The notes: generated by a model from the letters alone, not told the origin. Counted from the stretch's first letter, positions 2,687-18,539 are shown. The stretch is 18,539 nt of DNA from an archaeon (GCA_041677685.1 JBAYPN010000015.1:1-18539), one strand, 5' to 3'. A program made the numbers and translations.

Positions 2687-2699
2687 TTTTTAATTTATA

Positions 2700-2706
2700 A
2701 GGTGAT
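2700..2706 (+). promoter_or_regulatory. Shine-Dalgarno site AGGTGAT for paralogue 2
   Basis: AGGTGAT is complementary to the conserved 16S rRNA 3' end (AUCACCU). It lies 3 nt upstream of the ATG at 2710, inside a 23-nt intergenic spacer. Confidence 0.7.
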
Positions 2707-2709
2707 TTT

Positions 2710-4077
2710 ATGAAAAATAAATTTTTAAAGATTTTTATAATATTTATATTCTTTTTTATAAGTGTTGGGGTGGTAAGTTCATTTAGTATTCCATCAGTTG
2801 TAAAAATTACAGGTAGTATTGATTTAACAGAAACTAATGGAACTTATGTTGTTTATGCTTTTGTTAATGATCATTTAATAGGTTATAAATATTATTCAAA
2901 TTATGATGATTTAAGATTAGGACTTTATAATGGTTTTTTCTCAGACCCATTTGATATTTCTAAAACTGGAGATGGTGAGAGTTATAGTTTTGTTTTAAGT
3001 GTTAGTAGAACATATATAGTAAATGGAATAGACTATACTGTTATTAATAATTCAGACCCTATTCTTTTTCCAAACCCAAATTATAGTAATTTAAGTTATA
3101 CAGTAGACATTGTTGATAGTTCAATTACTACCCCTAAGATTAAAGATAATGCAGTTGGAGAAAATGACTTGGGAGCTAATTCAATTTGGACTGTTAGTAT
3201 TCCTGAAAATGTAGTAACTACAAATAAGATTAAGAATGATTCAATTAAAGGTACAGATTTTTCATTAGAGGCAATTGTTTCTGAAAAAGTAGCTGACAAC
3301 ACTATTGAAAAACCAAAGTTAAAAATAGAACCATCTAATCCTAACACAACCTATTCAGAATTCTTAGCAAAAACAGAAAATGATAATTTTTCTTGGGTTT
3401 CTAATGTTTCAGAAGATTATGAATTTGCTGTTGGGCAAGGTTTGTTTAAGGCTTTTGTTACAATGTCAAATACGACCTATGTAGGTATTGGTAATGAAAA
3501 AGTTGAAACAGGTATGTTTGAAGATAATTCTGTTACAACTAACAAAATAAAAGACTTAGCAGTAACAAATCCTAAACTTTCAGACAACTCAGTTTCAAGA
3601 CAAAAAATTATGGCTGATGCAATTGTTACTAGTAAGATTCAAAATCAAGCTGTAACAAATTCAAAAATTAAAAATAAAAACATAAATCAAGATAAATTAA
3701 ATAACACAGAATACTATTCACTATTAAAGTGTGGTCAAACATATTATAGTGTTTCTGGTAATATGTATGATTTAGAATTTGATAATTGTAATATTAATTA
3801 TAATAATTCAGAAAATAAATATTTAGTAACATATAATAATATTTTAATAAAGAAAGATGCTTCTACTAAATATTATTTTTCAAATAAAGATTTTACAAAA
3901 AATATAAATTTAATAAAAGGTTATTGTAACTCTAGAGGTGGAAGTCTAAACTCATACACTACAGAAAGTGGATCTTTTAATAGCCTTTTAGGTTTGACAG
4001 AAAAAGGAGAATTGCAAGTTGATTCTGGTACTTCTAAAATTAAAAATATAGTTTGTGAATTTTATTATATTGAATGA
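2710..4077 (+). CDS. secreted fibre-like repeat protein, paralogue 2 (455 aa), function unknown
   Basis: Signal peptide (MKNKFLKIFIIFIFFFISVGVVSS). Shared N-terminal motifs IPSVVKITGSI, GFFSD and NPNYSNL. 11-residue repeats start at residue 136 (nt 3115), the same residue number as in paralogue 1, for example SITTPKIKDNA, SVTTNKIKDLA and AVTNSKIKNKN. Four-Cys C-terminal domain. Confidence 0.8.
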   Translation: MKNKFLKIFIIFIFFFISVGVVSSFSIPSVVKITGSIDLTETNGTYVVYAFVNDHLIGYKYYSNYDDLRLGLYNGFFSDPFDISKTGDGESYSFVLSVSRTYIVNGIDYTVINNSDPILFPNPNYSNLSYTVDIVDSSITTPKIKDNAVGENDLGANSIWTVSIPENVVTTNKIKNDSIKGTDFSLEAIVSEKVADNTIEKPKLKIEPSNPNTTYSEFLAKTENDNFSWVSNVSEDYEFAVGQGLFKAFVTMSNTTYVGIGNEKVETGMFEDNSVTTNKIKDLAVTNPKLSDNSVSRQKIMADAIVTSKIQNQAVTNSKIKNKNINQDKLNNTEYYSLLKCGQTYYSVSGNMYDLEFDNCNINYNNSENKYLVTYNNILIKKDASTKYYFSNKDFTKNINLIKGYCNSRGGSLNSYTTESGSFNSLLGLTEKGELQVDSGTSKIKNIVCEFYYIE

Positions 4078-4088
4078 TATTGTATATT

Positions 4089-4095
4089 AGGTGAT
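4089..4095 (+). promoter_or_regulatory. Shine-Dalgarno site AGGTGAT for paralogue 3
   Basis: The same AGGTGAT heptamer as at 2700-2706. It lies 5 nt upstream of the ATG at 4101, and the intergenic spacer is again exactly 23 nt. Confidence 0.7.
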
Positions 4096-4100
4096 TGTAA

Positions 4101-5477
4101 ATGATAAAAAAAATATTTGGAATTTTTGTAATAATAATTAGTTTTCTTTTAATTATAAATGTTGGATATGCACACGATGTTCCTTTTGTAATTAAGATAA
4201 CTGGAGATTTAAATTTAAGTGATACCTCTCAAGATATTGGAATAAAAGCATATGTTAATGTTATATCAAACGATAATTTAGTTTTAGATAAAACAAATTT
4301 ACCATATGCAAACTTTAACTCCGAAATAGCCACTGGTTTTTTTACAGATCCAATTTCTAAAGATTTGACAGGAACTGATAAGACTTTCCCATTAAGAATT
4401 ATAGTTGAAGTAAACAATAGTAGTTTTCCTAAAACAATTTCAATTTCAAATCCAAATTATAGTAGTTTAGAGTATTATGCAAACAATTTAGTGGTTAATT
4501 CTCTAAATAATAATAAATTTGCAGATAAATCAATCACAACAAATAAGCTAAAGGATAACAGTGTTTCAGAAAGTAAAATTAATTATGTTTATGGAGAAAA
4601 TTTAGTAGATAATGCAGTTACTGGTTCAAAGATTAAAAATAATACTTTAACTAAAAGTAATTTTGCAAATGAAGGTCTAAATTATGTTGATTTTAAAATA
4701 TTGAATAATAATTCTGGAATTAATTATTTGTCAAAGAATCCAGATAATTCTGCTTTTGTTGCAGTTGGCACAATTGCAGCTATTGATTTAATGGAAGCTG
4801 GTGCTGGTATATTAAAAACAAACCCTTCTGAAATGAATACTTTTTCAATCAAGGATCTAGGAATTGTAAATAGTATGATTGGTAACAATGAAATTACAAC
4901 TAATAAATTGAATGATGGGGCAATAATTACTTCTAAGCTTGCAGACGACTTTATAACAACAAATAAATTTGCTGAGGGTGCTGTGGAAAATGCAGACTTG
5001 GACATAATGGAAACTGTGGACTTTGCAAACAACTCTTTGACTGTTAAGAAGTTGTCTGAGGAGGCATTGACTGCACTCTTATGTAATTCTGTGGATGTTT
5101 TTGTTTATAGGAGTGGACCAAATACTTCTTTAGGAGTTGCAAGAACAAATCATGATTGTGATGTTAGTTTTAATGGTTCTGAAATAAATGTAACATATGG
5201 AAATGTAAGATTTGAGAATGTGACTGAATTGGATGGTGGACCTTTTAAACTAAATGGAAATGAGATTTCAGGAAAAGCATTTTGTGCATTGCATAATGGT
5301 AAATTTTTAAGTGGTGATGAAGTTAGCGATTCTGTTTCCAATATTGCTTGGGTGCAATCTGATAATCTATGGGCAAGAGGAACAACTACAGAGAAATATT
5401 ATTCAGATATAACTTGTGTTTTTGATGGTGTTACTAAATATTCATCAGGATCATCAGGAAATTCAGGGGTAGAATAA
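4101..5477 (+). CDS. secreted fibre-like repeat protein, paralogue 3 (458 aa), function unknown
   Basis: Signal peptide (MIKKIFGIFVIIISFLLIINVGYA/HD). Shared motifs VPFVIKITGDL, GFFTD and NPNYSSL. 11-residue repeats include SITTNKLKDNS, EITTNKLNDGA and FITTNKFAEGA. Four-Cys C-terminal domain followed by a Ser/Gly-rich tail. Confidence 0.8.
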   Translation: MIKKIFGIFVIIISFLLIINVGYAHDVPFVIKITGDLNLSDTSQDIGIKAYVNVISNDNLVLDKTNLPYANFNSEIATGFFTDPISKDLTGTDKTFPLRIIVEVNNSSFPKTISISNPNYSSLEYYANNLVVNSLNNNKFADKSITTNKLKDNSVSESKINYVYGENLVDNAVTGSKIKNNTLTKSNFANEGLNYVDFKILNNNSGINYLSKNPDNSAFVAVGTIAAIDLMEAGAGILKTNPSEMNTFSIKDLGIVNSMIGNNEITTNKLNDGAIITSKLADDFITTNKFAEGAVENADLDIMETVDFANNSLTVKKLSEEALTALLCNSVDVFVYRSGPNTSLGVARTNHDCDVSFNGSEINVTYGNVRFENVTELDGGPFKLNGNEISGKAFCALHNGKFLSGDEVSDSVSNIAWVQSDNLWARGTTTEKYYSDITCVFDGVTKYSSGSSGNSGVE

Positions 5478-6594: not shown

Positions 6595-6688
6595 ATTCTT
6601 TCTTATATATTAATAAATTGTTTGCTAGAAATATCTTTTTTTACCCACACAGAAAAAGATTCTTTCTTATATATTAATAAATTGTTTG
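6595..6688 (+). repeat. perfect 30-bp direct repeat (6595-6624 and 6659-6688) flanking a hairpin
   Basis: ATTCTTTCTTATATATTAATAAATTGTTTG occurs twice, 64 bp apart start to start. Each copy contains TTATATAT (6603-6610 and 6667-6674). Between the copies, ATCTTTTT (6633-6640) pairs with AAAAAGAT (6653-6660) around a 12-nt loop. Confidence 0.85.
6667..6674 (+). promoter_or_regulatory. TATA-box-like TTATATAT proximal to the NurA-like gene
   Basis: The box centre is about 30 nt upstream of ATG 6701, inside the second copy of the 30-bp repeat. An identical box sits at 6603-6610 in the first copy. Confidence 0.3.
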
Positions 6689-6700
6689 TGGTTTAATATA

Positions 6701-7780
6701 ATGATTATGGACAACTTACAAAATATTGTTAATCTAATGGTTAACAACTATGAAAAGAACCAATTAACAATTAAATACTTGAAAAAGAACAACTTCAAAG
6801 AAATTAATAATCCATACAACAACTTAGAAAAAATAATTAACAAAATTGAAATTATAAAAGACCAAAATAGTTCCTTTATTGGTGTTGATTCTGGTTTTGT
6901 AAACAAACAATTTAATTTTGCAAACATTACCATAATTAAGGAAGTTGGAGTAGTCTTCAATTACAGAAATTCAAAACTAGAAAAGGCAACCTATTTTCCA
7001 AAAGCCTATAATCTTGCAAAACCATACATCACAACTTCTGCTTTAGAACTTGAAGAGATTGTTTGGAACACCTCAATTTTGAGATTAGAAAAAGAGATTG
7101 GGCTTTCTTTTGAAATAATTGAAAAAAGTGATTCTAATTTTTGTTTAATTGATGGTTCAATTGTTCCACAATATATTTCTAAGCCTTCAAAGGAATCTAA
7201 ATTACTTTCTTCTTATAATTCCTTAATTAATAATTTTATTAATATCTATAATCTTTGTAAAGAAAAAAAAGTCTACTTGGTTGGGTGTATTGAAGACTCA
7301 AGAGCAAACAGATTTTTTAAATTCTTAGAAGAAAAGATAATAAAAGAGAAGCTAACAAATGAACTGTATGATCCTTTCTTAGTCTTCTCTCTGCTCTCTA
7401 AAAATGAAAGAACTTGTGTTATTAAATATTCAGACAACTTTAAAGAACATCCAATCTTAAAGGACTTTCCAAAAGAGGTCTCTGACAACCTTTATATTCT
7501 TTATATTAAACTTTCAGAAGATGACTTTCCTTTAAGACTAGAATTTATTTACTTTGAGAGTTTTGGCTTGTCCTTAAAAGAATACACAGAACAGATTGTC
7601 TCAAACATCTCCTCAGTTTCTAATCTAAACAAAAGATATGTTTATCCTTCACCCCTAATAGAAGCAGATTTGAGAAGCAGACTAAGGCTTGATGAAATTG
7701 ATTCAATAACAAACACAATTTTAGAAAAAACAAGAAAATTTGGGTTTAGGGTGCCAAGAAGAGAATCTAGAATCTTTTAA
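6701..7780 (+). CDS. nurA: NurA-like 5'-3' nuclease (DNA end-resection family)
   Basis: The NurA-type motif order is present: IGVDSG (first acidic motif), RLEKE, CLIDGSIV (Asp at 7151-7153), IEDSRANRF and a C-terminal YPSPLIEADLRSRL. The track ORF starts at TTG 6686, which lies inside the upstream repeat. ATG 6701 or 6707 is more plausible. The family call comes from motif memory only. Confidence 0.6.
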   Translation: MIMDNLQNIVNLMVNNYEKNQLTIKYLKKNNFKEINNPYNNLEKIINKIEIIKDQNSSFIGVDSGFVNKQFNFANITIIKEVGVVFNYRNSKLEKATYFPKAYNLAKPYITTSALELEEIVWNTSILRLEKEIGLSFEIIEKSDSNFCLIDGSIVPQYISKPSKESKLLSSYNSLINNFINIYNLCKEKKVYLVGCIEDSRANRFFKFLEEKIIKEKLTNELYDPFLVFSLLSKNERTCVIKYSDNFKEHPILKDFPKEVSDNLYILYIKLSEDDFPLRLEFIYFESFGLSLKEYTEQIVSNISSVSNLNKRYVYPSPLIEADLRSRLRLDEIDSITNTILEKTRKFGFRVPRRESRIF

Positions 7781-7911
7781 GGAAAAAAAGTTAATAATCC
7801 AAACTCATTAGTTTATTAAATGGTTTTGTGTATACTATATAATATTTTAATAAAGAAAGCTTGATCTTTTTAGCCATCAAAAAGCGGTTAGAAAATCAAA
7901 CAAAAAAACCT

Positions 7912-7925
7912 ATTTCTTAAGAAAT
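7912..7925. promoter_or_regulatory. perfect 14-bp palindrome ATTTCTTAAGAAAT, candidate operator
   Basis: The sequence is exactly self-complementary. It lies 50 bp upstream of the ATG of the winged-helix gene, just upstream of an AT-rich TATA-like stretch (TTTTAATA, 7942-7949). Confidence 0.35.
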
Positions 7926-7974
7926 TTTAAACCGATGCTCTTTTAATACTTTCATGACATAATCATGATATATT

Positions 7975-8436
7975 ATGACAGAAAATGACATTAACACAAA
8001 ACAGAAATTTCTAGAGTTGTTACTCAAAGAAGACACAAAAGAACTGGGTTTGAGTGATCTTATTCAAATCCAAGAAAAGTTTAATGATCCATTAATACTT
8101 TCAGTAATCATTCATCAATTAATAGAAGAAAGAAAAAAGACAAACAACATACTTTTAGAACTAAGAGAGAAGTATGATAGCTTACAGTTTTTAGTTAAAA
8201 ACAACATAAAGACTAAGCAAGAACAAAACACAGATGTTTACAACATATTACCAGAGATAGATGACAAGATAATTTCTTTTATTAAAGTTAAACAAAAAGT
8301 TGACGCTGAGATGGTCCAAAATGAATTTAATTATAAGGGATCAAATGCAGCATCACAGAGATTAAACAAACTAGTAAACAATGGATACTTAAGGAAAGTG
8401 CAAGCAGGAAGAAAGGTATACTTTATTGTTAGGTAA
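7975..8436 (+). CDS. small winged helix-turn-helix DNA-binding protein (153 aa)
   Basis: The N-terminal half is charged and helical. The C-terminal ~60 aa have a classic wHTH pattern: DDKIISFIKVKQKVDAEMVQNEFNYKGSNAASQRLNKLVNNGYLRKVQAGRKVYFIV. This reads as helix, recognition helix and then a beta-hairpin wing containing GRK. Confidence 0.6.
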   Translation: MTENDINTKQKFLELLLKEDTKELGLSDLIQIQEKFNDPLILSVIIHQLIEERKKTNNILLELREKYDSLQFLVKNNIKTKQEQNTDVYNILPEIDDKIISFIKVKQKVDAEMVQNEFNYKGSNAASQRLNKLVNNGYLRKVQAGRKVYFIVR

Positions 8437-8829
8437 AAGTATTTTTTACTTTTGCAAAATAATTAACCCCCTTTAATTAAAAAACCCCTTTTTTAATTAC
8501 ATATCTTTCTTTTCTTGCTTTTCCCTTTTCTGCCTTTTTTAAAACTTATAAAAATTAGAAGGATTGACTGATATGTTTTTCCTTCTTCTTTTCTGCCCTT
8601 ATTTTTCTTATCACAAATCTTCTTTTTTAAAAATCCTTTAATTAAAAATTTTTTAATTCATAGTCTTTCATTTTCTTTTAAAATCAGTTTCCAATTTTCC
8701 TTTTTCTATCCCTTTTCTGTAATCCCCACTCTTTTTTCAAACAACCTATCTTTGTTTACAAAAATTAATATATTTAAATCTTTTGTTCTATAATTCTAAT
8801 ATACAATTTAGGTATGGGGGCAGAAAAAA
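8437..8829 (+). other. 393-bp non-coding pyrimidine-rich (T/C on + strand) region with short repeated motifs
   Basis: No ORF of 60 aa or more occurs in any frame. CCCTTTTCTG-type motifs occur at 8523-8534, 8588-8598 and 8710-8719. CCTTTAATTAAAAA followed by TTTTTTAATT occurs at 8470-8498 and 8635-8658. A T6 tract at 8443-8448 lies just after the stop codon. Confidence 0.6.
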
Positions 8830-9165
8830 ATGGACTTTCAAAAAATAGGGGCTTATGCTTTTTTATTTGGAATTTTAATTTCAATTATTTTTGGATTGAT
8901 TTACTCTACAGGAAATCCAAGTTGGGTATCAGTAGCACTAATAATCTTAGGTTTAATAATTGGATTATTAAACATCTCTGACAGAAATGTATCTTTATTC
9001 TTAATTGCAGCAATAGCATTTATTGCAACAAGCAATTCTATAAATGCATTACCTGTAATTGGGGATCTTTTAAGAGGAATTTTAATAAATTTAGTTCACT
9101 TTGTAGGACCAGCTGCAATGATTGTTTCAATCGTTGCAATCATTAGGGTTGCAAATACTAAATAA
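8830..9165 (+). CDS. small polytopic membrane protein (111 aa, 3-4 predicted TM helices), function unknown
   Basis: ATG preceded by GGGGG (8816-8820). Almost the entire protein is made of hydrophobic helices: AYAFLFGILISIIFGLIY, VSVALIILGLIIGLL, LFLIAAIAFIA and FVGPAAMIVSIVAII. Confidence 0.65.
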   Translation: MDFQKIGAYAFLFGILISIIFGLIYSTGNPSWVSVALIILGLIIGLLNISDRNVSLFLIAAIAFIATSNSINALPVIGDLLRGILINLVHFVGPAAMIVSIVAIIRVANTK

Positions 9166-9210
9166 TTTCCTTTCCCTTTTTTTCTTTTTTTTAAATTGAT
9201 TCTTTTTTAA
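9166..9210 (+). terminator. multiple oligo-T tracts after the small membrane protein gene
   Basis: T7 (9177-9183), T8 (9185-9192) and T6 (9203-9208) lie directly downstream of the stop at 9165. Confidence 0.4.
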
Positions 9211-9360
9211 AGACTTTCCATATATAGATATATTTATATATAATTTGATGTAAATTATAATTATAAATTAAGAATAATATTTAAATCTAAAAACAACAAA
9301 ACAGAAAGAATAAAGAACAACAAAAACACAGCATTAAACATTTGTTTGGAAAGTATAGAT

Positions 9361-12300
9361 ATGGGTAAGGAAGAAAAAAAAAGAAATAATTTTTTCTCAA
9401 AAATATACAGTAGCTTAGAAAAAGGTTATTATAATTTTTCAAATTGGTTAACAAAGAAAGGAATCAACCTAAATGCTTTAAATAAAAAATTAGAAAATAA
9501 AGGAGTTCCTCCATTTATCTTGTTTGGTTCAATCTTACTAATTATAATCTTACTAGTATTATTCTTATTTGTGTTTAATGTTAATGCAACTTCTGAAATC
9601 AAATTTAGTATTCAAGGTTCTGACAACAAGTCAATCAATGATGCAAGCCTTGTGATTAAAGATGTTAAAGGTAAAAAGGTATTTTCAGGAACAGTAAACA
9701 ACAACGATGTTATTAAGATAAATCTAAAGCCAGGAAAAACATATTCCTTTTCTGCAATGAAAGATGGTTATAAGCCTTTTAACAAAGACTTTTTAATTGA
9801 ATCAAAAGAAGACCTAATTGTAATTGTTTTTAATGAAATTATTCAGAACGGAATCTTACAAATTAAAATAATAGATTCTCAAGACAAAAGAATTGTTGCA
9901 AATGCTCTAGTTACTGTTAGCTACTTGCTTGATGGGAAAAGAACAGAAATCTCAGGTAAACCAGATAAAAATAATTTCTATGATGTTAACTTACAAGTCC
10001 CAATCAACAAGGACATAGAGCTAATTGTCTCTGCTGACAAATACCAAGACCATAAAGAAACAATAAGATTAAATTCTGAAGCAGAAACTAGAAACATAGA
10101 GCTTGTTTTTAATAGTGGGCTTTTAGAAGGAAAAAGCAGAATTACTTTTGTGGTTAATGATGAGGCTGGAGAGTTGTTGAATGATTCTATAGTTGAAGTC
10201 TATAATCTATCTGATCAACTAATAGCTCAGAACAGAACTGTTGATGGAAGAGCAATTATTGATGTTGATTCTGGCTCAACAATCAACTACAAGGTAAGTA
10301 AAGAAGAATACAGGACCTTTGTAAGTGATCCTTTAATCTCTTTTAAAATATTAAACAAAGAAGAGATAATAAACATTACCCTAAAGAAAGGAGGAAGCTC
10401 TTTGAAAGTAAAAATACTTGATTCAATTTCCTTTAATCTTTTACAAGATGCTTCTGTCTCCATTTATGATCAAAACCAATCATTGTTAGACAACAAGACA
10501 ACTGACCTTTCAGGAACTATCAACTTCCAAGGCTTAGAAACAAACTCAGAGTTTATTGTTGTTGGTTGTAAGCAAAATTATTTTTGTGAAAGTAAAAAAG
10601 TTTCTTTAATTAATTTCTCAGAACTAGAGTTAAGGTTAGAAGAAATAAACATAAATAATAGTGCAATTTTAGAAGTCTTTGTTGTTGACTTTAAAAATCT
10701 ACCTGTAGATAATGCAAAAATTAAAATCTTTGAAATAAAAGATGAAATTGAATATCCTTATAATGATGAACCATTTGTTCTAGATGCAACTGGTGGACTT
10801 TCCTTACCTTTAAAGGTTGGTTCTAAATATCTTGTGTATGCTTATGTTGGAGATGTTGAAGACTACCAGTATATAACCATTAGTAACAAACTACAAAATA
10901 GAATTATTTTTACAATTGAGCAATCTTCAAAAATCTTAACCTTAGACTTACTAGATAGCTTTGGACAGAAAATAAGTTCAGGACATGTATCAATTTCTGC
11001 AAAGGACGGAACAATTTTATATGACTCAGACATCAACTCTGCATTAGATGATATTATGTTTCGTACAGATGGTTATTCTGACTTTATATTAAATTACACA
11101 GATTCAAATGGTGTAACAACAACTGGGACACTATCAGCAAATGATGCAGACTCAGCAAACCATTTAGGCTTTAAACTTAACCCTAAAGTAGTTGGTGATT
11201 TTCCAATCATTGACTTTGTAGGCATACAGAATAGTAGAGGGGAAAAAATAAATTATATTTCTCCAAACAATGATTATTATTTAATATTTGATGTAATTGT
11301 TCCACAAGGCACAACCAAAGCAGGAGTGCATATTAGAGCTGGAGAGGACACTGTTACTGATTCTGAAAATCAAAGTTATGGAATCACAGGCTTTATGGCA
11401 GACACAACAAACTTCACCTACTCAACAACCTACAATCCTTTACCTGAACCTGGTTCACAATCAATAGATGTCTTAAACCAAGGAAATGCAGGAAACATTA
11501 ACAAATGGATTGAGCTAAAATGGGATAATAAGCTTGGAGTTACAAACAAGCAAATTAAAATTAAAGTAAAAGCAATTGACTCTTCTACATTTAAACCAAA
11601 ATTTAAATACAGGGCATGGGTTGAAAGAGACTTTGAGGTTTACAGAGATCCACAAGACTCAACCCTACAAAAGAAATACTCAACAAACAACAGACAACAA
11701 CTTTATGCAGACACAAAAGAAATAACTGTAGAGTTATTTGATGTTCCTGCAGAATGTAAAGATGATATTTGTGTGTCTTATAGCTTTATTGACTCAGATG
11801 GAATTAGTTATTCTAAAGAGGACTTTTTTGCATTAAAGGGAGATGTGTTTGCTTTAGAAGCTACACTTTACAGTAATAAAAATAGAGTAATTAAATTAAA
11901 CACAAAGACATCAACTACCCAACCAGCAATCTCATTTATAAGTGCTGATGAAGGAACTTTAGCTTTTCCAACAAACTTTAATCTAGGCACAATTTCAGAA
12001 CTTGAACTAAACAAAGATGGAATTAATTTAAGGGCTGGAGAGCGAAACAAAGTCTACACTTACTTTGTCTCAAAAGCAATTGGTGTAAGTTATATTGATT
12101 CAAAATTTATTTTAGAAGATGACTCTGCTCTTGAACAAAGATTAAGCTTTGAGGTTCTTGACAAAAGATACTTAAGAATATTATTTAATCCTGACCTAAT
12201 ATTACCATTTGGTTCTAAACTAGAGTTAGAGGTCTTTGATTCAGCAAATGGAAACCCAATTGAAAATGCTTTTATAAAGATTGAAGATGAGCAAGGGCAA

Positions 12301-15300
12301 TTTATAAGACTAATAAAAGGAGATAGACTAAATGGAAGGGCAGGAAAATATGTAATCAATTCAGATTTTGTTGTAAACAAATTAAATTTAACAATCTCTG
12401 CTTATGGTTATGTGCCATTTACCAAACAACTTTTGATTGCTGATGACTCTGTTCTTGTTGCTCCAAAGGAAGTGTTGATTAACTTAGGGGTTGATCAAAT
12501 TTCTCAAACTGTAAATTTCAATTTAGAAAATATTTCTGACACCTCAGTAACTGACATCTATGTTGGAGAACCTGTTTGGGTAAATGGGGCTGACACCTTG
12601 ACTTTGGATGTTAGAGGACCACCAAGTGTTACTAAGAAAAATAAAATAAACTTTCAAGCAATTGCAACAGTTTCAAAAGATGCATTATTTGATTCTGCAT
12701 ATGCAAATGTTCCAATCTATGGGCTTGTGGGGAATAGGCAAGTTGCAACTGTTGTTTCTATAAGGATAAACAGAGGGTTGATAGTTGATGACTGTTTGGT
12801 AATTGCACCAAAAAAGATTGACACTTTTGTTGGGCTAAACACCAATTTCAATTATGATGATTATTATGGGGCTGGAGACTACCAAGACTTTATAGGCTCA
12901 CAAAATTTAAATTATACACCTAATCAAAGCTATAACACAGGATATGGTGGGTCTATTCCAGGTTCAAGTAATTCCAATTCCAACTACAATTATTATAATG
13001 ATGGCTTTAACAGATATATTAACAACTTCATAACCTCTAGAGCAGGAGCCTCTGAAAACACAGTAGTTTTTACTATTCAGAATAAATGTGAACAAATAGT
13101 TTTCTTAAACCCAAAGTTAGTTCCAATCTCTTCAAATTCAAACAATGATCTTGAAATTATATTAAATCAGTTGACTATACTTCCAGGTGAAGAAAAGCTA
13201 TATGATGTGCTTATTAAAAACACAAGTGATAGAGAACAAATTAAAAAATATAAATTTAATATTTTGTGGGAAAATTCTTTTTATAATCTTTCACCTACAG
13301 AACTTAATGTTGACTTGATAGATGTAAGTAAAGCTTTGTGGGTTGCACCTACACAATTACAGATCTATTTATCACAGACAACCGAACAACAACCAGCAAT
13401 AACAAGCACAAGAATTATGATTAAAAATATTGGAAATGTTCCAATAACTGACATACAGATAAGCACTTACCCACAGATCAAGTCTGCAAATATTGGAGTA
13501 ACTGAATACCCAAGGGAGATAAAGATTTTAGAGCCTGGTAAACGAGTTCCTGTTGATCTAAAGTTTACAGTTAACATTAATAGAGCAACTTTAGAAGACA
13601 TGTACTTTGTTGTTACTGGAAAGGCAGCAGGTGTGAAAAATCCAGTCTTTGCAAAAACAACTGCCTACTTTTTAATTTCTTCTCCTAATTGTCTAAAGAT
13701 TAGTCCTAAAAATCTAGACTTTACTTTAAATTTAGGAGAGAAAAAAGCAAGAAATATTTCTATTAATAACCAATGTGCAGAGCCTGTAGCAATTGTTGGA
13801 ATTGATAAAAGACTTGGTAGTTACCAACAAGCCTTTGGGAATAACGCTGTGTCTTTAGTTCCAACATCTGGGATGGGGGTAATTCCACCAAACGGTTTTG
13901 CAGACTTTTCATTTTCAATAACTGCAAATGCATATGGTGGACAACCAAAGGTTCCTGTAACAATTATTGGACAAGCTTTAAATTCAGGTAATTATGTAAC
14001 TTCAGAGAGCACTTTAGTTTCTTTAAATATTCTATCTAAAGATCAAGATGAACAAAATGATTTCTTACAATCTTTTGAAGTAACTCTTCCTGTTTGTAAT
14101 AACCCTTCTGAGTCTAAGACTGTGTACATGCCTTTAATCTCTGTTAATGACTGTACAGGTAGGGATGGTTATTGTGATTCTTATGGAGCTTCTGAATTGA
14201 TACTATCAAAGATTGATGAGATGTATGGAAAAATACAGACAGTTGCTGCACACTCCCAAAATCAATTATTAAAAACTGGTTGTTCTGTTCAAAAGGCTTT
14301 ACAAGGATATTGTCCAATCTCTGATCTTGGGGGGGACTTAGGTCCTGTTGAGTTTGATGTTTACCTACAGAACGATTCTTTATCTTATGACCTAGTCAAA
14401 GAGATCTTAAGCAAATCAGATTATAAATTTAAAAAATATTTTGTTGATGTTGCAGTTCCAAACAGTAACCTTACAGGGTATGGTACCTATCAATATGGGG
14501 GGAAAATAAACATCCCTAATCTTTCTGGTTGTGGGAAATATAAATTAGAGTTGAATGCCTTTATTGGAGCTAACCAAGACAGCATCTTTCCAAACAGAGT
14601 TAACTTCTTAGTAAATTTAGTTTCTTATAAACAAACTGAACAATGTGAAAAAAGTATTGAAAATTATTTAAATTATTTGCCGTGGGACATAGACCTTACA
14701 AAGAATAAAAGTAAAGGCACCTGGTTAACTGTGTTTTCAGGTGATGAGAATGTAGCAAAAGAGATTTTAAGTGGAGTTAGTAAATTTGAAAAGAATGATA
14801 ATAGATATGTGAAGGGTAACATTCCAAGCACTAAACAAAATCATCTTAACATCAGAGTTGGAAAGATTAATGAAGATCAAGAGGCTTTAGCAAAAATATA
14901 CTTTAATGATCTACAAAAAAGTCCTTCCTCTAAACCTGAACAACTAAATATTGTAATAAATAATAGATATGCAATTTCTGGAACTTCACAATTGCCTGAA
15001 AAAGTATTGACTGATGCTAAGATCTTAATCAATAATTTTATAAGTAAGACTGATTATACAGAAAATTGTATTTCAGAAAATCTAGATTATATGTTAATCT
15101 TAAAAGTTATAAAAGCAGGGAGATTAGAATTTGATCCTAAAGAAAAGACAAGTGTTGTTTTAGTTGATAAAGTTTGTACTGATCTAAACATTGTTTCTGA
15201 TATTTTAGAAAATGTTGTTTTAAACCTAAAAGCACCAAATGACCTAAACACTTGGTTTGAATATAGAAATAAAAAATATGATTCTCTTGGTTTAGATTTA

Positions 15301-17367
15301 AAACAAGGAGTGTCAAATGATTTTAATGTATGTTATATTCCACAAAATGATCAGATCTATAATCTGGTTGGAAAAGACATAATTGTAAGTGCAAGAAGTA
15401 TTTATTCTACAAGTCTTAAAGCAGGAAATGTTGGACAAAGAAAGTCTGAGGCAACCATCCATTTGTCAAGTTGCGGAGTTACACCTGTTGATGTTTTAGA
15501 GATTGTAAGTAACAAGGTGGTTGCTGCTAACAAGGATGGTGGTTCTGCACAAGACACCTATTATGCTTTGGTTGATTGGAACAGATCATATAACCCTACA
15601 GACACAGAGACTTTGTGTGACACAATAAATAAGTATATTGAGAAAAATCCAAGCTCTAGTTTATTTTTTGACTATAAGTTAGAAAATTGTAATACTGGAA
15701 AGACTAAGGCTGAAAAGGAAGCTAAAAACAATAAAGCAATAAATAATGCTTTGACTAAATATTTTGTACCATGTATGGCAACCTGTACAGCTTGTACTGC
15801 TGGGACAAATGCTATTTTTGGGATGGTGCCTGTTTTGGGGCAGATCAAGTTGTTGTCAGGGGTAGTTGTTGATTGTGGAATTTTTGCTTGCGGTTTACCA
15901 TCAGCAAGCATATATTTGAATACTGTTACTGGAAAGGGATTTTCAGATTTTATTGATGGTTGGTTAACAAAGTTATTTATTGGAGAACAAAATAAACAAA
16001 CAGGCACAGAGATTCATCTTGCTAGAAGTGTTGTTGGGGGAATTGAGGGGATGAGTACCTGGATTGCAGAAGTCTTTAATGGAACAAATCTTGAGAGTCC
16101 TGGGGCAACAACACTTGGTATTGGGACTGCACAGGCACTTTCAGGGTCAAGGATGGTAAAAGCAACTCCACTTGGTTTTGAGAAGGGAGCTTCTTCTGTC
16201 TTAGAAGGAGTTTCAGGGACTTTAACTCCTGTAGGGGCAGTGGTTCCAACACCTCCTGTAACTCCACCTCCTGTAACTCCTCCGATAGTTACAAATGTTC
16301 CACATACAGTTGATGCAAGACTTGGAAAATATGTAAGTTACATGAACGGAACAAGCACTTCCTATTCCTTTGTTCCACATGATCCTGCGATGGCTGCAAG
16401 AATTTTGCCAAGAGTAACAAATACTGCTGGAGCATACATACCTAGTCAAATTGAGAGTTTGACAGCAAGTGAGTTAGATGACTTGGTTTCACTTATAAGG
16501 AATGGGACTTTTTCAAAAGCAAGGCCTAATCTTTTTGCATTAAATCCAAGCTCTTTGGCTAGTCAAGTAGAAACATTTGCAATTAAAAAATATCCAACAC
16601 ATCCCTTTACCTTTGGAGTTGGGGCAACAGCTACAACACCTCCTGCAGGAACAGCAGGAACACCTGGGGGAGCTGGGGCAACAGCCTTAGAAGGAATCTC
16701 ACAAGTAGAGTATGATGATCTGTTAAATACAATAGAGACCCAAAAGGCAGAAATTAAAGGTAATCTAGATAAAATTACTGCTGAGAAAGCAAAACTTACA
16801 GATCTACAAGATGGTTCTAAAAAATGGTACCAGAAACATAAGAAAGCAACAGGAACTAAAAAAGCACTTACAAGACTTGAGGTAAATGCAAAGCCACTAG
16901 AAGACGCTATGAAACAATTAGATGATCTAGAAAGAGCATTAAAGCCAGGGGGAACAAGATTAACTCCAACTGTTGTAGATGCTGCAGGAAACCCAAAAAT
17001 CCCAATTAATGATGCTATTAAAAATCAGATTACTGATTTAGAAAGTTCTGTGGTAAGAAAAGCAAAAGTAAAGTTTAGTGCAAAATTAGCAAATTTTGGG
17101 GCAGGAATGTTTAGGGCTCTTGCTTGTGGAATTTTAGGGAATGTTGCTGGAAGTAATGTTTTAACAGATACTGGAATTACAGGTTTAGATCATTCTGTGT
17201 TAATCAACGATAATGTTAATTTTAATAGAAACACATTATATAAGGTTGACATTATAGACAACCAAGACTCACAAGATCCAAATAACAAAAGTAGATATGA
17301 TTTAAAGATAGAAAGCTATGTTGGTTCAACATCTAATAATCAGAGGATAGATAATTGTTCTAAATAG
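9361..17367 (+). CDS. giant membrane-anchored surface protein (2,668 aa from ATG 9361, or 2,673 aa from TTG 9346)
   Basis: One uninterrupted ORF of 8 kb. The features in order are:
- a basic N-terminus followed by one TM helix (PPFILFGSILLIIILLVLFLFVF, nt ~9508-9576)
- about six tandem ~85-aa beta-sandwich repeats resembling CarboxypepD_reg/PEGA domains (nt ~9595-11100), with one more at ~12170-12440
- Ig-like modules with a PapD/ASH/CARDB-like pattern (~12440-13980)
- an N/Y/G/S low-complexity segment (12838-13030)
- a Cys-containing distal region
- a compositionally distinct C-terminal module (15772-17367)
No enzymatic motif was recognised. Confidence 0.85.
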   Translation: MGKEEKKRNNFFSKIYSSLEKGYYNFSNWLTKKGINLNALNKKLENKGVPPFILFGSILLIIILLVLFLFVFNVNATSEIKFSIQGSDNKSINDASLVIKDVKGKKVFSGTVNNNDVIKINLKPGKTYSFSAMKDGYKPFNKDFLIESKEDLIVIVFNEIIQNGILQIKIIDSQDKRIVANALVTVSYLLDGKRTEISGKPDKNNFYDVNLQVPINKDIELIVSADKYQDHKETIRLNSEAETRNIELVFNSGLLEGKSRITFVVNDEAGELLNDSIVEVYNLSDQLIAQNRTVDGRAIIDVDSGSTINYKVSKEEYRTFVSDPLISFKILNKEEIINITLKKGGSSLKVKILDSISFNLLQDASVSIYDQNQSLLDNKTTDLSGTINFQGLETNSEFIVVGCKQNYFCESKKVSLINFSELELRLEEININNSAILEVFVVDFKNLPVDNAKIKIFEIKDEIEYPYNDEPFVLDATGGLSLPLKVGSKYLVYAYVGDVEDYQYITISNKLQNRIIFTIEQSSKILTLDLLDSFGQKISSGHVSISAKDGTILYDSDINSALDDIMFRTDGYSDFILNYTDSNGVTTTGTLSANDADSANHLGFKLNPKVVGDFPIIDFVGIQNSRGEKINYISPNNDYYLIFDVIVPQGTTKAGVHIRAGEDTVTDSENQSYGITGFMADTTNFTYSTTYNPLPEPGSQSIDVLNQGNAGNINKWIELKWDNKLGVTNKQIKIKVKAIDSSTFKPKFKYRAWVERDFEVYRDPQDSTLQKKYSTNNRQQLYADTKEITVELFDVPAECKDDICVSYSFIDSDGISYSKEDFFALKGDVFALEATLYSNKNRVIKLNTKTSTTQPAISFISADEGTLAFPTNFNLGTISELELNKDGINLRAGERNKVYTYFVSKAIGVSYIDSKFILEDDSALEQRLSFEVLDKRYLRILFNPDLILPFGSKLELEVFDSANGNPIENAFIKIEDEQGQFIRLIKGDRLNGRAGKYVINSDFVVNKLNLTISAYGYVPFTKQLLIADDSVLVAPKEVLINLGVDQISQTVNFNLENISDTSVTDIYVGEPVWVNGADTLTLDVRGPPSVTKKNKINFQAIATVSKDALFDSAYANVPIYGLVGNRQVATVVSIRINRGLIVDDCLVIAPKKIDTFVGLNTNFNYDDYYGAGDYQDFIGSQNLNYTPNQSYNTGYGGSIPGSSNSNSNYNYYNDGFNRYINNFITSRAGASENTVVFTIQNKCEQIVFLNPKLVPISSNSNNDLEIILNQLTILPGEEKLYDVLIKNTSDREQIKKYKFNILWENSFYNLSPTELNVDLIDVSKALWVAPTQLQIYLSQTTEQQPAITSTRIMIKNIGNVPITDIQISTYPQIKSANIGVTEYPREIKILEPGKRVPVDLKFTVNINRATLEDMYFVVTGKAAGVKNPVFAKTTAYFLISSPNCLKISPKNLDFTLNLGEKKARNISINNQCAEPVAIVGIDKRLGSYQQAFGNNAVSLVPTSGMGVIPPNGFADFSFSITANAYGGQPKVPVTIIGQALNSGNYVTSESTLVSLNILSKDQDEQNDFLQSFEVTLPVCNNPSESKTVYMPLISVNDCTGRDGYCDSYGASELILSKIDEMYGKIQTVAAHSQNQLLKTGCSVQKALQGYCPISDLGGDLGPVEFDVYLQNDSLSYDLVKEILSKSDYKFKKYFVDVAVPNSNLTGYGTYQYGGKINIPNLSGCGKYKLELNAFIGANQDSIFPNRVNFLVNLVSYKQTEQCEKSIENYLNYLPWDIDLTKNKSKGTWLTVFSGDENVAKEILSGVSKFEKNDNRYVKGNIPSTKQNHLNIRVGKINEDQEALAKIYFNDLQKSPSSKPEQLNIVINNRYAISGTSQLPEKVLTDAKILINNFISKTDYTENCISENLDYMLILKVIKAGRLEFDPKEKTSVVLVDKVCTDLNIVSDILENVVLNLKAPNDLNTWFEYRNKKYDSLGLDLKQGVSNDFNVCYIPQNDQIYNLVGKDIIVSARSIYSTSLKAGNVGQRKSEATIHLSSCGVTPVDVLEIVSNKVVAANKDGGSAQDTYYALVDWNRSYNPTDTETLCDTINKYIEKNPSSSLFFDYKLENCNTGKTKAEKEAKNNKAINNALTKYFVPCMATCTACTAGTNAIFGMVPVLGQIKLLSGVVVDCGIFACGLPSASIYLNTVTGKGFSDFIDGWLTKLFIGEQNKQTGTEIHLARSVVGGIEGMSTWIAEVFNGTNLESPGATTLGIGTAQALSGSRMVKATPLGFEKGASSVLEGVSGTLTPVGAVVPTPPVTPPPVTPPIVTNVPHTVDARLGKYVSYMNGTSTSYSFVPHDPAMAARILPRVTNTAGAYIPSQIESLTASELDDLVSLIRNGTFSKARPNLFALNPSSLASQVETFAIKKYPTHPFTFGVGATATTPPAGTAGTPGGAGATALEGISQVEYDDLLNTIETQKAEIKGNLDKITAEKAKLTDLQDGSKKWYQKHKKATGTKKALTRLEVNAKPLEDAMKQLDDLERALKPGGTRLTPTVVDAAGNPKIPINDAIKNQITDLESSVVRKAKVKFSAKLANFGAGMFRALACGILGNVAGSNVLTDTGITGLDHSVLINDNVNFNRNTLYKVDIIDNQDSQDPNNKSRYDLKIESYVGSTSNNQRIDNCSK

Positions 17368-17421
17368 TTTTTTTTAATTTTTCTTTTTAGATTTTAATTT
17401 TTCTTTTTAGATTTTAATTTT
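17368..17421 (+). terminator. T-rich 20-bp tandem repeat (about 2.5 copies) immediately after the giant gene, candidate terminator
   Basis: A T8 run starts right after the TAG stop. The unit (A/T)TTTTAATTTTTCTTTTTAG occurs at 17371-17390 and 17391-17410, with a partial copy at 17411-17421. Each unit carries T4-T5 runs. Confidence 0.45.
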
Positions 17422-17577
17422 ATTATAAAGTATTTTTCTTATTTTGGTGTACATGCTTATGTTTGTTTTCAAGATATAAAAAAAATAAGGAAGCTAGGCA
17501 TAAAACTTCAACCATCTCTATTTATAAACTTTTTCATAATATATATTATTAATTTTATTAAAAATTATATATTTTTT

Positions 17578-17582
17578 AGGAG
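17578..17582 (+). promoter_or_regulatory. Shine-Dalgarno site AGGAG for the pilin-like gene
   Basis: AGGAG lies 8 nt upstream of the ATG at 17591. Confidence 0.6.
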
Positions 17583-17590
17583 TATTTAAT

Positions 17591-18539
17591 ATGTTTGAAT
17601 TATTTAAGAATAGTAAGGGTCAGATTTCTGTTGAAGTTTTGACAATTGTTGGAATATTAGTTATTGGTGGAATTATTTTTGGAGTGTTTTATTTATCTCA
17701 GATTAATAGAAGTATAGATGATGCTGATCAATTAGACACTAGTATAGGCGATCAATTTGGAGAGGTTTTGACACCTGTGGGAATGGGTAATATTCTTCCA
17801 ACTTGTTCTGATAATATACAGAATGGACTAGAGCAAGGTGTAGATTGTGGAGGTCCTTGTCCACCGTGTGTAATTTCTGGTGATGATTGTGGGGATGGTT
17901 ATTGTGATGTTCTTGGGGGAGAATGTGATACTTGTCCTCAAGATTGTATAAATAATGAGTGTGATCCAATTCCAACAACTTTTCTTTTAGAAGTAGATCC
18001 TGAGAGTTACACAGGATTTGTTGGACAGACTTATTATGGTCCTGAAGTTACTATTATTTTAAATCAATCTTCTAGTGTTGATTTGTCATTAAAGGTTGAA
18101 AAAAATAATGCTTTAAATAATTTAATAATTACAGATGAATGTACTTATGATGGTATCCAAATTAATGGTAATACTTTTATTGGAAATTACACTTCTGATG
18201 CTATTTTCTTTAAAAATATTGTATGTTCTCAAGAAGACACTTATTATTTCACATTTACTGGTGATGATGGTGAATATCAGATTATAAGACCATTCGAATA
18301 CACAACAACCTCAGATATCACTCCTCCAGGAAACAACAATTATGCTCTATGTTCAACTTCTGCTCTTTCAGGAGGCTCTGATACTTTAAGAGTTTGTTTA
18401 AATGATTATACAACTACTTTAGACTTAGGTGGTTCTGACTATTTAACAATCTATGTTAACCAACCAGATGCTTTAGAAAATAATTGTAAGCTTACTTCAA
18501 AGGGTAGCAAGATTTGTGTGTATGTTGGTAATAGTTGGA
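17591..18539 (+). CDS. archaeal type IV pilin-like protein with class III signal peptide and a Cys-rich module (3'-truncated by the window end)
   Basis: This ORF is not in the supplied track because it has no stop inside the window. I translated it by hand and it stays open for 316 codons from ATG 17591. The N-terminus is MFELFKNSKG/QISVEVLTIVGILVIGGIIFGVF. That matches the archaeal prepilin (class III, DUF361-type) signature: a short basic leader, KG, then Q-x-S-x-E and a hydrophobic helix. A 10-Cys module follows (nt 17804-17962), and then a beta-rich region. Confidence 0.8.
   Translation, partial: MFELFKNSKGQISVEVLTIVGILVIGGIIFGVFYLSQINRSIDDADQLDTSIGDQFGEVLTPVGMGNILPTCSDNIQNGLEQGVDCGGPCPPCVISGDDCGDGYCDVLGGECDTCPQDCINNECDPIPTTFLLEVDPESYTGFVGQTYYGPEVTIILNQSSSVDLSLKVEKNNALNNLIITDECTYDGIQINGNTFIGNYTSDAIFFKNIVCSQEDTYYFTFTGDDGEYQIIRPFEYTTTSDITPPGNNNYALCSTSALSGGSDTLRVCLNDYTTTLDLGGSDYLTIYVNQPDALENNCKLTSKGSKICVYVGNSW

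Follow-up and report, generated by a model that had tools for sequence, protein, structure and literature searches.

We analysed a stretch of genomic DNA of 18,539 nucleotides (nt) (GCA_041677685.1 JBAYPN010000015.1:1-18539, hereafter the window), whose source is a low-GC DPANN archaeon of the phylum Iainarchaeota, and more particularly the four genes found at positions 7975-18539, all on the + strand. These genes encode a 153-amino acid (aa) probable winged helix-turn-helix (wHTH) protein, a 111-aa small membrane protein, a giant membrane-anchored protein (G1) and a class III signal-peptide, pilin-like protein (pil317). A preliminary description had read them as a candidate functional unit. 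Having compared more than 140 related loci, labelled L001 onward, we favour, as a fairly probable explanation, a junction of three independent modules and not one four-gene apparatus. Module A would be an older NurA-linked block, made up of the 153-aa and 111-aa genes and found without giants too. Module B would be a cluster composed of G1 as first gene, a pilin-like protein of about 560 aa, the giants G2 and G3, and more. Finally, module C would associate pil317 with an M6 metalloprotease in a mobile two-gene surface cassette, located between G1 and the conserved pilin-like gene of the cluster.

The closest known case to the G1 locus is the cluster of Candidatus Forterrea multitransposorum, reported as "five large membrane-anchored proteins in a 42-kb region" (Probst & Banfield 2018, PMC5905446), to which the window adds an inserted cassette and a nearby pilus locus. 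A member of this cluster should exceed 1,800 aa and carry a membrane anchor, as G1 does (2,668 aa, transmembrane (TM) helix at aa 53-71). Judged from its sequence, G1 is the orthologue of the first of the five Forterrea giants: it is 38% identical, over 100% of its length, to P0003 and to the corresponding gene of L020 (CP045477.1), which is the complete Ca. Forterrea genome. Every G1 homologue is followed by a protein of about 560 aa with a type IV pilin-like N-terminus (e.g. KKGF/NLFTALISLMLL, the slash marking the presumed cleavage site), then by a giant of about 2,300-2,470 aa and by a third giant (L011, L013, L015, L016, L017). On the Forterrea-type contig, tiled from three loci, the order (sizes in aa) is 153-111-G1(2671)-pil558-G2(2322)-G3(1846)-965aa-G4(~2466)-122-810-G5(2150)-tm123-tm125, and it recurs in dozens of metagenome loci with a GC content of 0.26-0.52, several of them on contigs of 0.7-1.2 Mb. 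In several lineages the giant cluster ends with the two small membrane proteins tm123 and tm125 (L134 16006-16732; L116, L127, L131), which have no relationship to the 111-aa protein; in L131, one of the two comes after the single giant.

The gene content of the present genome (L146) indicates by homology that the giant cluster continues just past the end of the window. There, G1 is followed by pil317, a 780-aa M6 (immune inhibitor A-type) peptidase, a second pilin-like gene (pil585) and G2. The pil585 protein is 44% identical to pil571 of L011, the following giant is 58% identical to G2 of L011, and the promoter-like region before pil585 matches the sequence found directly after G1 in L011. 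The pilin-like protein of about 560 aa and the G2 giant that characterise a multi-giant cluster are thus both present, with a two-gene interruption. Like the window, the Forterrea cluster has the 153-aa and 111-aa genes upstream of G1 and a pilin-like gene and G2 downstream; unlike it, there is no pilin-like and M6 cassette after G1, and LemA is encoded upstream where the window genome has a type IV pilus (T4P)-like locus. The original paper devotes one sentence to this cluster, with no analysis of motif, partners or function (PMC5905446). Three points described below were not found in the literature consulted: the N-terminal motif that the giants share, the pilin-like and small membrane proteins that constantly accompany them, and how widespread the family is.

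The pil317 gene (17591-18539 and beyond, + strand; 317 aa in full, 316 aa in the window) does not belong to this conserved arrangement. Its product begins with MFELFKNSKGQ/ISVEVLTIVGILVIGGIIFG (MFELFKNSKGQ/ISVEVLTIVGILVIGGIIFGVFY; KGQ/ISVE), followed by a 22-residue hydrophobic helix, and shows, as judged by eye, the pattern formed by a charged leader, a [KR][GA] cleavage motif and a helix of about 20 aa. Matches to curated models remain below cut-off, with E=0.053 and 13.9 bits against a cut-off of 23.7 for PF04021, and E=0.0021 and 18.1 bits against a cut-off of 65 for TIGR04205. A Cys-rich segment (GVDCGGPCPPC / CGDGYCD) is also present. No homologue of pil317 adjoins G1 in any relative; the few that exist adjoin an M6-like peptidase gene, in three arrangements (pil317-M6 in L001/L146, pil328-M6-111aa in L022 and M6-pil323 in L143). 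Given the order G1-pil317-M6-pil585-G2 and the L011-like promoter of pil585, pil317 therefore belongs to a two-gene insertion, and we infer that the pil317-M6 pair was inserted between G1 and the conserved pilin-like gene. A 20-bp tandem repeat (TTTTAATTTTTCTTTTTAGA, 2.5 copies, 17372-17421, + strand) lies at the upstream edge of the insertion, in the T-rich tract after the G1 stop codon; its copy number varies among otherwise 99-100% identical assemblies, and a related sequence, TTCTTTTTCTT, precedes the conserved pil585 promoter. Several assemblies of this species, again 99-100% identical otherwise, end inside or just after pil317, and variants of the gene with 90, 76, 72 and 64% identity are found on very short contigs (L143, L145). 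Such assembly breaks may reflect strain-level (hyper)variability.

Archaeal type IV pilins and class III proteins, including those of TIGR04205 (archaeosortase D/PIP-CTERM-associated), resemble pil317 by their short basic leader and helix of about 22 aa, and pilus machinery genes (prepilin peptidase, ATPase, platform) lie near pil317 too. The differences are its scores below cut-off, a globular part of 280 aa with Cys-rich repeats, and the linkage of the gene to an M6 peptidase and not to pilus genes.

The 111-aa protein (8830-9165, + strand), in which hydropathy reveals four hydrophobic segments, is by homology a member of a widespread archaeal and Chloroflexi family without assigned function. 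Its homologues were grouped into 16 clusters, and a genome scan with the 111-aa alignment retrieved 80 loci, which span Woese-, Pace-, Micr-, Aenigm- and Nanoarchaeota as well as loci labelled Methanosarcinales, Dehalococcoidia and KSB1. Outside Iainarchaeota, the neighbours of these genes are housekeeping genes, and none of the loci scanned has a homologue of G1 or of the 153-aa protein nearby. A NurA-domain gene is located just upstream of the 111-aa homologue in eight loci (L031-L034, L036, L040, L063, L093; labelled Woesearchaeota, Methanosarcinales or Nanoarchaeia), immediately so in six of the eight. This order echoes the NurA-153-111 succession of the window (6686-9165) and may correspond to an old synteny or to a functional link of the DNA-repair nuclease with the small membrane protein.

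The 153-111 pair and the giants can also be found without each other. In L029 no giant accompanies the pair, and the next gene, in convergent orientation, is endonuclease III-like by sequence inspection; in L027 a 111-aa homologue precedes other genes, again without a giant; in L021 the 111-aa gene is inverted with respect to the 153-aa gene and G1, and two extra open reading frames (ORFs) separate it from the 153-aa gene. Conversely, neither gene lies upstream of the giants of L016 and L017, and L131 and other metagenome loci have no match to either beside their giants. The rates of divergence differ as well, the 153-aa and 111-aa genes being 70-77% identical within Iainarchaeota versus 38-51% for G1. 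Conservation of the gene neighbourhood in relatives, the absence of which had been named in advance as a result that would refute a four-gene unit, is thus lost for the pilin-like gene and partly lost for the others. Together with the signals that each gene has of its own, this speaks against one functional unit.

These signals are most elaborate around the 153-aa gene (7975-8436, + strand). Its product has an N-terminal helical part and a C-terminal helix-turn-helix (HTH) followed by a wing (GRKVYF), and its relatives are 50-77% identical. Four independent libraries give HTH matches that are all below threshold, mutually consistent and confined to residues ~92-151: SoFic-like_C in Pfam (E=9.5e-4), an ArsR-type HTH (E=0.047), the Lrp/AsnC HTH in a PDB profile search (E~0.4) and a transcriptional regulator in PHROG (E=4.7e-4). 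From these matches we consider the protein a probable wHTH protein. The gene that the preliminary description announced as a regulator is real, and its HTH matches are concordant, all of them below the thresholds of the models.

Upstream of this gene, a promoter- or operator-like region (7886-7974, + strand), of which about 100 nt are conserved in seven species, contains a TATA-like sequence (TTTTAATA, 7941-7948, + strand) and, between this box and the ATG, directly 5' of the latter, a palindromic pair TCATGA-N5-TCATGA (7952-7968, + strand). The pattern TC.TGACA..ATCATGATATA, i.e. TCATGACAT(A/T)ATCATGATATA, which ends just before the ATG, is invariant in the seven species. Each locus has one such pair, always 5' of the 153-aa gene; it is absent elsewhere in about 46 kb of this genome and in about 57 kb of the Forterrea-type cluster, and a search of the sequences 5' of the 111-aa gene, G1, the T4P genes and the pilin-like genes found no operator-like palindrome. 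The simplest and most likely reading would be that the 153-aa protein represses its own promoter through this candidate site, and regulates itself only. Further upstream of the promoter there is an inverted repeat, both arms of which co-vary from one species to another (e.g. GGTTTGATTTTCAAACC in L013).

Downstream of the 153-aa gene, a terminator-like hairpin (AGAAGGA...TCCTTCT) is followed by a conserved CTTCTTTTCTGCC and a T-rich run (8557-8598, + strand), and a degenerate second copy of the hairpin precedes it (8515-8540, + strand). This element was found, in one to three tandem copies, in every Iainarchaeota locus that shows the gap 3' of the 153-aa gene. The 3' arm and the tail of the element form a conserved pyrimidine sequence, TTCCTTCTTCTTTTCTGCC, usually with a T-run after it; the 5' arm varies among species in sequence and position, and its pairing with the conserved 3' arm is kept. 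Folded as single sequences, all copies form a structure (z-scores of -1.5 to -3.7), and RNAalifold on the MAFFT alignment of the element recovered none, the variable 5' arm being misaligned. In L021, the element remains with the 153-aa gene although the 111-aa gene is inverted. In some species the copies are about 77 nt each and repeated two or three times (L013, at 9169/9247/9324). The sequence of the element is more strictly conserved than a plain terminator needs, and it has no match in Rfam.

The 111-aa gene and G1 have elements of the same kind. A TATA-like 12-mer, ATATTTAAATCT, lies 49 nt upstream of the 111-aa start codon (8770-8781, + strand), and an identical second copy lies 73 nt upstream of the G1 start codon (9277-9288, + strand); its count in the window is not significant by itself (3 matches versus 1.2 expected). 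A T/C-rich terminator-like tract (9166-9200, + strand), 77% similar to positions 8515-8549 (repeat family D1), directly follows the 111-aa stop codon. The gaps between the four genes are 393, 195 and 223 nt long and contain repeats and T/C tracts. We therefore find, where a single operon would be expected to have short gaps and a stable gene order, long gaps with TATA-like and terminator-like elements, and an order and orientation that are not conserved. Each gene has promoter-like and terminator-like elements of its own, and the sequence thus suggests that there are four separate transcription units; the 153-aa and 111-aa genes would be transcribed separately from each other and from G1.

G1 is encoded at 9361-17367 (+ strand). 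Its ORF opens at a TTG codon at 9346, and gene callers and homologue alignments favour the ATG at 9361; the 2,668-aa ATG form is on record, and no record exists of the exact 2,673-aa TTG form. Residues 1-47 (9361-9501, + strand) form a conserved, presumably cytoplasmic N-terminal motif, followed by a TM helix at about aa 48-72 (9502-9576, + strand), the one strong TM helix of the protein (aa 53-71, mean hydropathy 3.4). An array of immunoglobulin (Ig)-like or macroglobulin (MG)-like beta-sandwiches extends from about aa 75 to 1640, interrupted near aa 1180-1240 by an N/Y/S-rich linker. After the array come a Cys-containing region (aa 1640-2130), hydrophobic helices (aa 2116-2206), a variable, Pro-rich and coiled-coil region (aa 2200-2550; 15958-17010, + strand) and a conserved end of about 120 aa made of a hydrophobic helix and a small beta domain. 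In Pfam, CarboxypepD_reg scores above its cut-off, and bMG3 and DUF7507 below theirs. No enzymatic domain was found in Pfam, NCBIfam or PDB sequence searches (the last without any match), self-BLAST revealed no internal repeats, and we saw no C-terminal sorting motif and no thioester motif.

An AlphaFold2 model of aa 555-1155 is all-beta with a mean predicted local distance difference test (pLDDT) of 75.7. Foldseek relates it to the MG domains of alpha-2-macroglobulin, the Ig-like domains of PrgB, the S-layer protein SbsB and integrin legs; at the level of the model, these matches are a generic likeness to tandem beta-sandwiches. The C-terminal part (aa 1640-2668, 1,029 aa, six-sequence alignment) was modelled poorly (pLDDT 52). 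In this model, aa 2116-2206 appear as long hydrophobic helices, aa 2448-2527 as a coiled coil and aa 2572-2604 as a further hydrophobic helix, beside the small beta domain, and Foldseek retrieved with it a small Ig/MSP-like sub-domain only.

A search of 5.8 billion proteins yielded five clusters of G1 homologues only, with 51, 38, 38, 38 and 25% identity. Up to aa ~2200 the protein is conserved to a rather uniform degree; aa 2200-2550, the most variable part, are much less conserved, and conservation returns in the last ~120 aa. Altogether, G1 diverges faster (38-51%) than its neighbours (62-77%). The giant of L016 (P0005, 2353-10920) aligns with G1 up to the conserved C-terminal hydrophobic helix and then has an extra ~250-300 aa without any Pfam match, which points to modular C-termini in the giant family; a likeness of this extension to NlpC/P60 was considered and dropped, no such family appearing in the Pfam results.

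The N-terminal design of G1 is common to the giants G1-G5 of all lineages sampled, in which a cytoplasmic segment of about 30-55 aa precedes a TM helix. The consensus of this motif is LKxxYYxLEDKYYxxLD...PVYKVIDPIDKVIPSF, directly followed by the TM helix. G1 of the window has a diverged variant, FFSKIYSSLEKGYYNF..KKGI..KGVPPF, which aligns with YYxLEDKYY...PSF of G2-G5. Neither Pfam nor NCBIfam contains a model that matches it, even at E<=10. A profile built on the G1 version found 469 representative clusters (50% identity) at E<=0.001 among 1.84 billion; the carriers are mostly proteins of 1,300-3,400 aa, and the motif is N-terminal every time.

The genome also encodes a complete T4P-like assembly locus (L148 840-9256), on the same contig and about 1-9 kb upstream of position 1 of the window. 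This locus comprises an A24 prepilin peptidase with the archaeal C-terminal domain Arc_PepC_II (E=3.5e-13), a 952-aa ATPase, two T2SSF-domain proteins, a DUF192 protein and two archaeal pilin-like proteins. Residues 508-825 of the ATPase match GspE2 (2oap, E=5e-35) and FlaI (E=1e-27), and its N-terminus is extended by about 500 aa of low complexity, rich in K, N and D. Genes for a T2SSE-type ATPase, a T2SSF platform protein and an exosortase-like protein directly precede G1 in both L017 and L131, together with several pilin-like genes in L017. We considered that T4P genes might always precede the giants and rejected this idea: in most lineages the upstream genes are housekeeping ones (arginyl-tRNA synthetase (ArgRS), Hel308, glycosyltransferase), and no T4P gene was found within 10 kb of the giants in Forterrea-type genomes. 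The association between giants and T4P genes is recurrent and not universal, because housekeeping genes lie upstream in the Forterrea-type genomes and in most lineages. A comparable neighbourhood exists in Omnitrophota, in which type II secretion system (T2SS)- or T4P-like loci and small class III signal-peptide genes precede the giant genes (West-Roberts et al. 2023 preprint, 10.1101/2023.11.21.568195).

The window as a whole is AT-rich (GC ~0.24-0.41) and contains ten genes, every one on the + strand, in the order metallo-beta-lactamase (MBL)/beta-CASP nuclease, three secreted paralogues of about 460 aa, HtpX, NurA, 153-aa protein, 111-aa protein, giant and class III signal-peptide protein, the last gene running past the window end. 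No tRNA gene is present, and Rfam gives no match anywhere in the window at E<=1. The named relatives are Candidatus ainarchaeum, Ca. Iainarchaeum and Ca. Forterrea multitransposorum, of the DPANN phylum Iainarchaeota. The preliminary description had correctly placed four co-directional + strand genes and the repeated motifs and T tracts of their non-coding gaps; it was also right about the polytopic 111-aa protein, the anchoring of the giant and the class III signal-peptide pattern of pil317, with the curated pilin models below cut-off. Its estimate that more than 80% of the window is devoted to envelope or secreted proteins was too high: we computed 77%, of which the giant alone represents 43% of the window. 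Nor is it the case that no described system has such a composition, since the giants of Forterrea and of Omnitrophota are similar ones.

Some features lie outside the four genes. Very AT-rich tandem repeats occur at 3-196, upstream of the MBL nuclease gene (e.g. a 20-nt unit repeated 2.7 times at 14-66). The three tandem paralogues of about 460 aa (1304-5477) are 21-27% identical among themselves, and the repeats in their central part have matches among phage tail-fibre families (phrog_892, with E values as low as 1e-23); their relatives occupy the same place in other genomes in varying number, and one adjoins a pil317 homologue in L144. Between HtpX and NurA, L011 (3518-4798) and L013 (3177-4167) have genes for a ribbon-helix-helix antitoxin and a ParE-NUDIX fusion, and L011 has additional Bro-N and NUDIX insertions between NurA and the 153-aa gene. 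The HtpX-NurA-153 region is thus one that readily takes up insertions.

Concerning the function of the giant, architecture and conservation suggest that G1 is most likely a long surface tether or adhesin. Its cytoplasmic motif of about 47 aa and single TM helix would hold it in the membrane of the archaeon itself, in a type II, N-in topology. The Ig-like domains, roughly twenty in number, would form a long stalk that would hold the fast-evolving C-terminal module (Cys-rich, hydrophobic helices, coiled coil) away from the cell. This distal module would then bind a partner surface, most plausibly the host cell, and the cytoplasmic motif would dock all giants to a common partner. One may go further and see in the motif the mark of a dedicated DPANN-wide multi-giant contact apparatus, in which giants docked through the motif to a common membrane partner (tm123/tm125 or a T4P-like platform) and joined with the pilin-like subunit of about 560 aa would attach ultra-small archaea to their hosts; we put this forward as a tentative idea, with less than even chances.

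Other explanations of the locus were weighed. That the four genes form a unit after all, the wHTH protein controlling the giant, the 111-aa protein being its membrane partner or anchor and the pilin-like protein a co-assembled subunit, seems to us very unlikely, even though the genes are adjacent and co-directional, three of the four products are envelope proteins, the 153-111-G1 adjacency is kept in about ten Iainarchaeota species despite upstream insertions and a local inversion, and one and the same TATA-like 12-mer precedes the 111-aa gene and G1. What speaks against it is that pil317 goes with M6 and is missing beside G1 in all relatives, that 153-111 occurs without giants and giants without 153-111, and that the 111-aa family is far broader than the giants and adjoins housekeeping genes. 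Moreover, the operator-like site is found only at the 153-aa promoter (over the ~46 kb from this genome and the ~57 kb from the Forterrea-type cluster that were scanned), gaps of 195-393 nt with terminator-like elements separate the genes, and the small membrane proteins conserved in the cluster are others, tm123 and tm125. The more general proposal of a surface or contact apparatus fares better: envelope genes, a conserved giant cluster with its pilin-like protein and an upstream T4P locus are all present, and it is the choice of the four named genes as the unit that is not supported.

The giants could also be an S-layer-like coat or sheath of the archaeon itself and not host-contact adhesins, which we regard as unlikely. 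They represent about 5% of the Forterrea genome, they are membrane-anchored Ig-like arrays with SbsB among their Foldseek matches, and their cluster is kept across many small archaeal genomes (GC 0.26-0.52), as would be expected of a core envelope component. The SbsB match is, however, generic for tandem beta-sandwiches (TM-score ~0.13), and at least five divergent paralogues with fast divergence fit variable adhesins better. The usual archaeal S-layer protein has a cleaved Sec signal and a C-terminal anchor or PGF-CTERM. An uncleaved N-terminal anchor and a conserved cytoplasmic motif do not correspond to this design: in G1, a cytoplasmic segment of 47 aa precedes the TM helix and no C-terminal sorting motif was seen. 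Rather less likely still is that the giants are substrates or parts of a T4P-like machine, their conserved N-terminal motif, which ends in KG-(I/V)-P, serving as a long leader of class III type that the prepilin peptidase would cut for display on or near a pilus with the protein of about 560 aa. The constant presence of this pilin-like protein in the cluster, the genes for a T4P-like ATPase and platform that immediately precede G1 in L017 and L131, the full T4P-like set about 1-9 kb upstream of the window and the similar surroundings of the Omnitrophota giants, likewise preceded by T2SS/T4P-like loci and class III genes, all speak for such a link. Yet a strongly conserved leader of 30-55 aa would differ from those of class III, and housekeeping genes lie upstream of the giants in most lineages, the Forterrea-type genomes having no T4P within 10 kb. 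The idea of prepilin cleavage is further weakened because the Gly before the TM helix is not conserved in giants of the G3-G5 type: Gly occurs at -1 only in the G1/G2-type, and G3, G4 and G5 read IDK(V/I)(V/M)PSF. A Pro at +2/+3 is not part of the known prepilin cleavage pattern, and its presence in the giants is at odds with it.

Several points weigh against the three-module reading and the role of adhesin that we prefer. The 153-aa and 111-aa genes and G1 are adjacent in every Iainarchaeota genome that has this type of G1 (the window, L011, L013, L015/L023, L018-L021, L024, L025), so that a lineage-specific functional link may exist, and the identical 12-mer before the 111-aa gene and G1 would allow their co-regulation. 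The wHTH label of the 153-aa protein comes from matches below threshold only. The analysis shows the gene content with its homology and synteny, the motif common to the giants and the type of their domains, and adhesion is deduced from the architecture, the fast evolution and the Forterrea authors' own inference. Finally, the C-terminal model of G1 is of low confidence (pLDDT 52), and its hydrophobic helices, should they be extra TM segments, could alter the topology.

Comparison with known giant proteins helps to situate G1. The Omnitrophota giants (10.1101/2023.11.21.568195), for which cell attachment was proposed, share the same neighbourhood logic; they are bacterial proteins of more than 10,000-30,000 aa with enzymatic domains (glycosyl hydrolases, peptidases), whereas G1 has only Ig-like domains, and no sequence relationship between them and G1 was found in this analysis. 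The SPEARE proteins of Nanohaloarchaeota are giant and membrane-anchored, occupy several percent of the genome and have external adhesion domains for which host interaction was proposed (Hamm et al. 2019, PMC6642349). As giant membrane-anchored DPANN proteins they are a functional analogue of G1, but they are mostly anchored near the C-terminus and possess a cytoplasmic restriction-endonuclease domain and serine-protease and toxin-like regions; the cytoplasmic part of G1 is only the motif of about 47 aa, and no enzymatic domain was detected in the protein. Bacterial giant adhesins with Ig-like repeats, of the SiiE/LapA/Bap type, and the MG arrays of alpha-2-macroglobulin-like proteins resemble G1, at the level of fold type only, as long strings of beta-sandwiches that form an extended surface stalk. 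The former are exported by type I secretion, have their signals at the C-terminus and carry near-identical repeats, unlike G1 with its N-terminal signal-anchor and no detectable internal repeats; no RTX or type I secretion system (T1SS) family was found in the Pfam and NCBIfam scans of the window proteins, nor any such gene among the neighbours.

How DPANN archaea recognise and hold their hosts is largely obscure outside a few cultured pairs. The giant cluster to which the Forterrea study gave one sentence can now be seen as a widespread conserved module: its genes keep a fixed order, its members include a large pilin-like protein and two small membrane proteins, and its giants share an N-terminal anchor motif for which there is no curated Pfam or NCBIfam model. 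The view that the regulator and the small membrane protein next to G1 are part of the giant system is thereby corrected, and the N-terminal motif, the fast-evolving C-terminal module and the recurrent T4P-like link provide handles for experiments.

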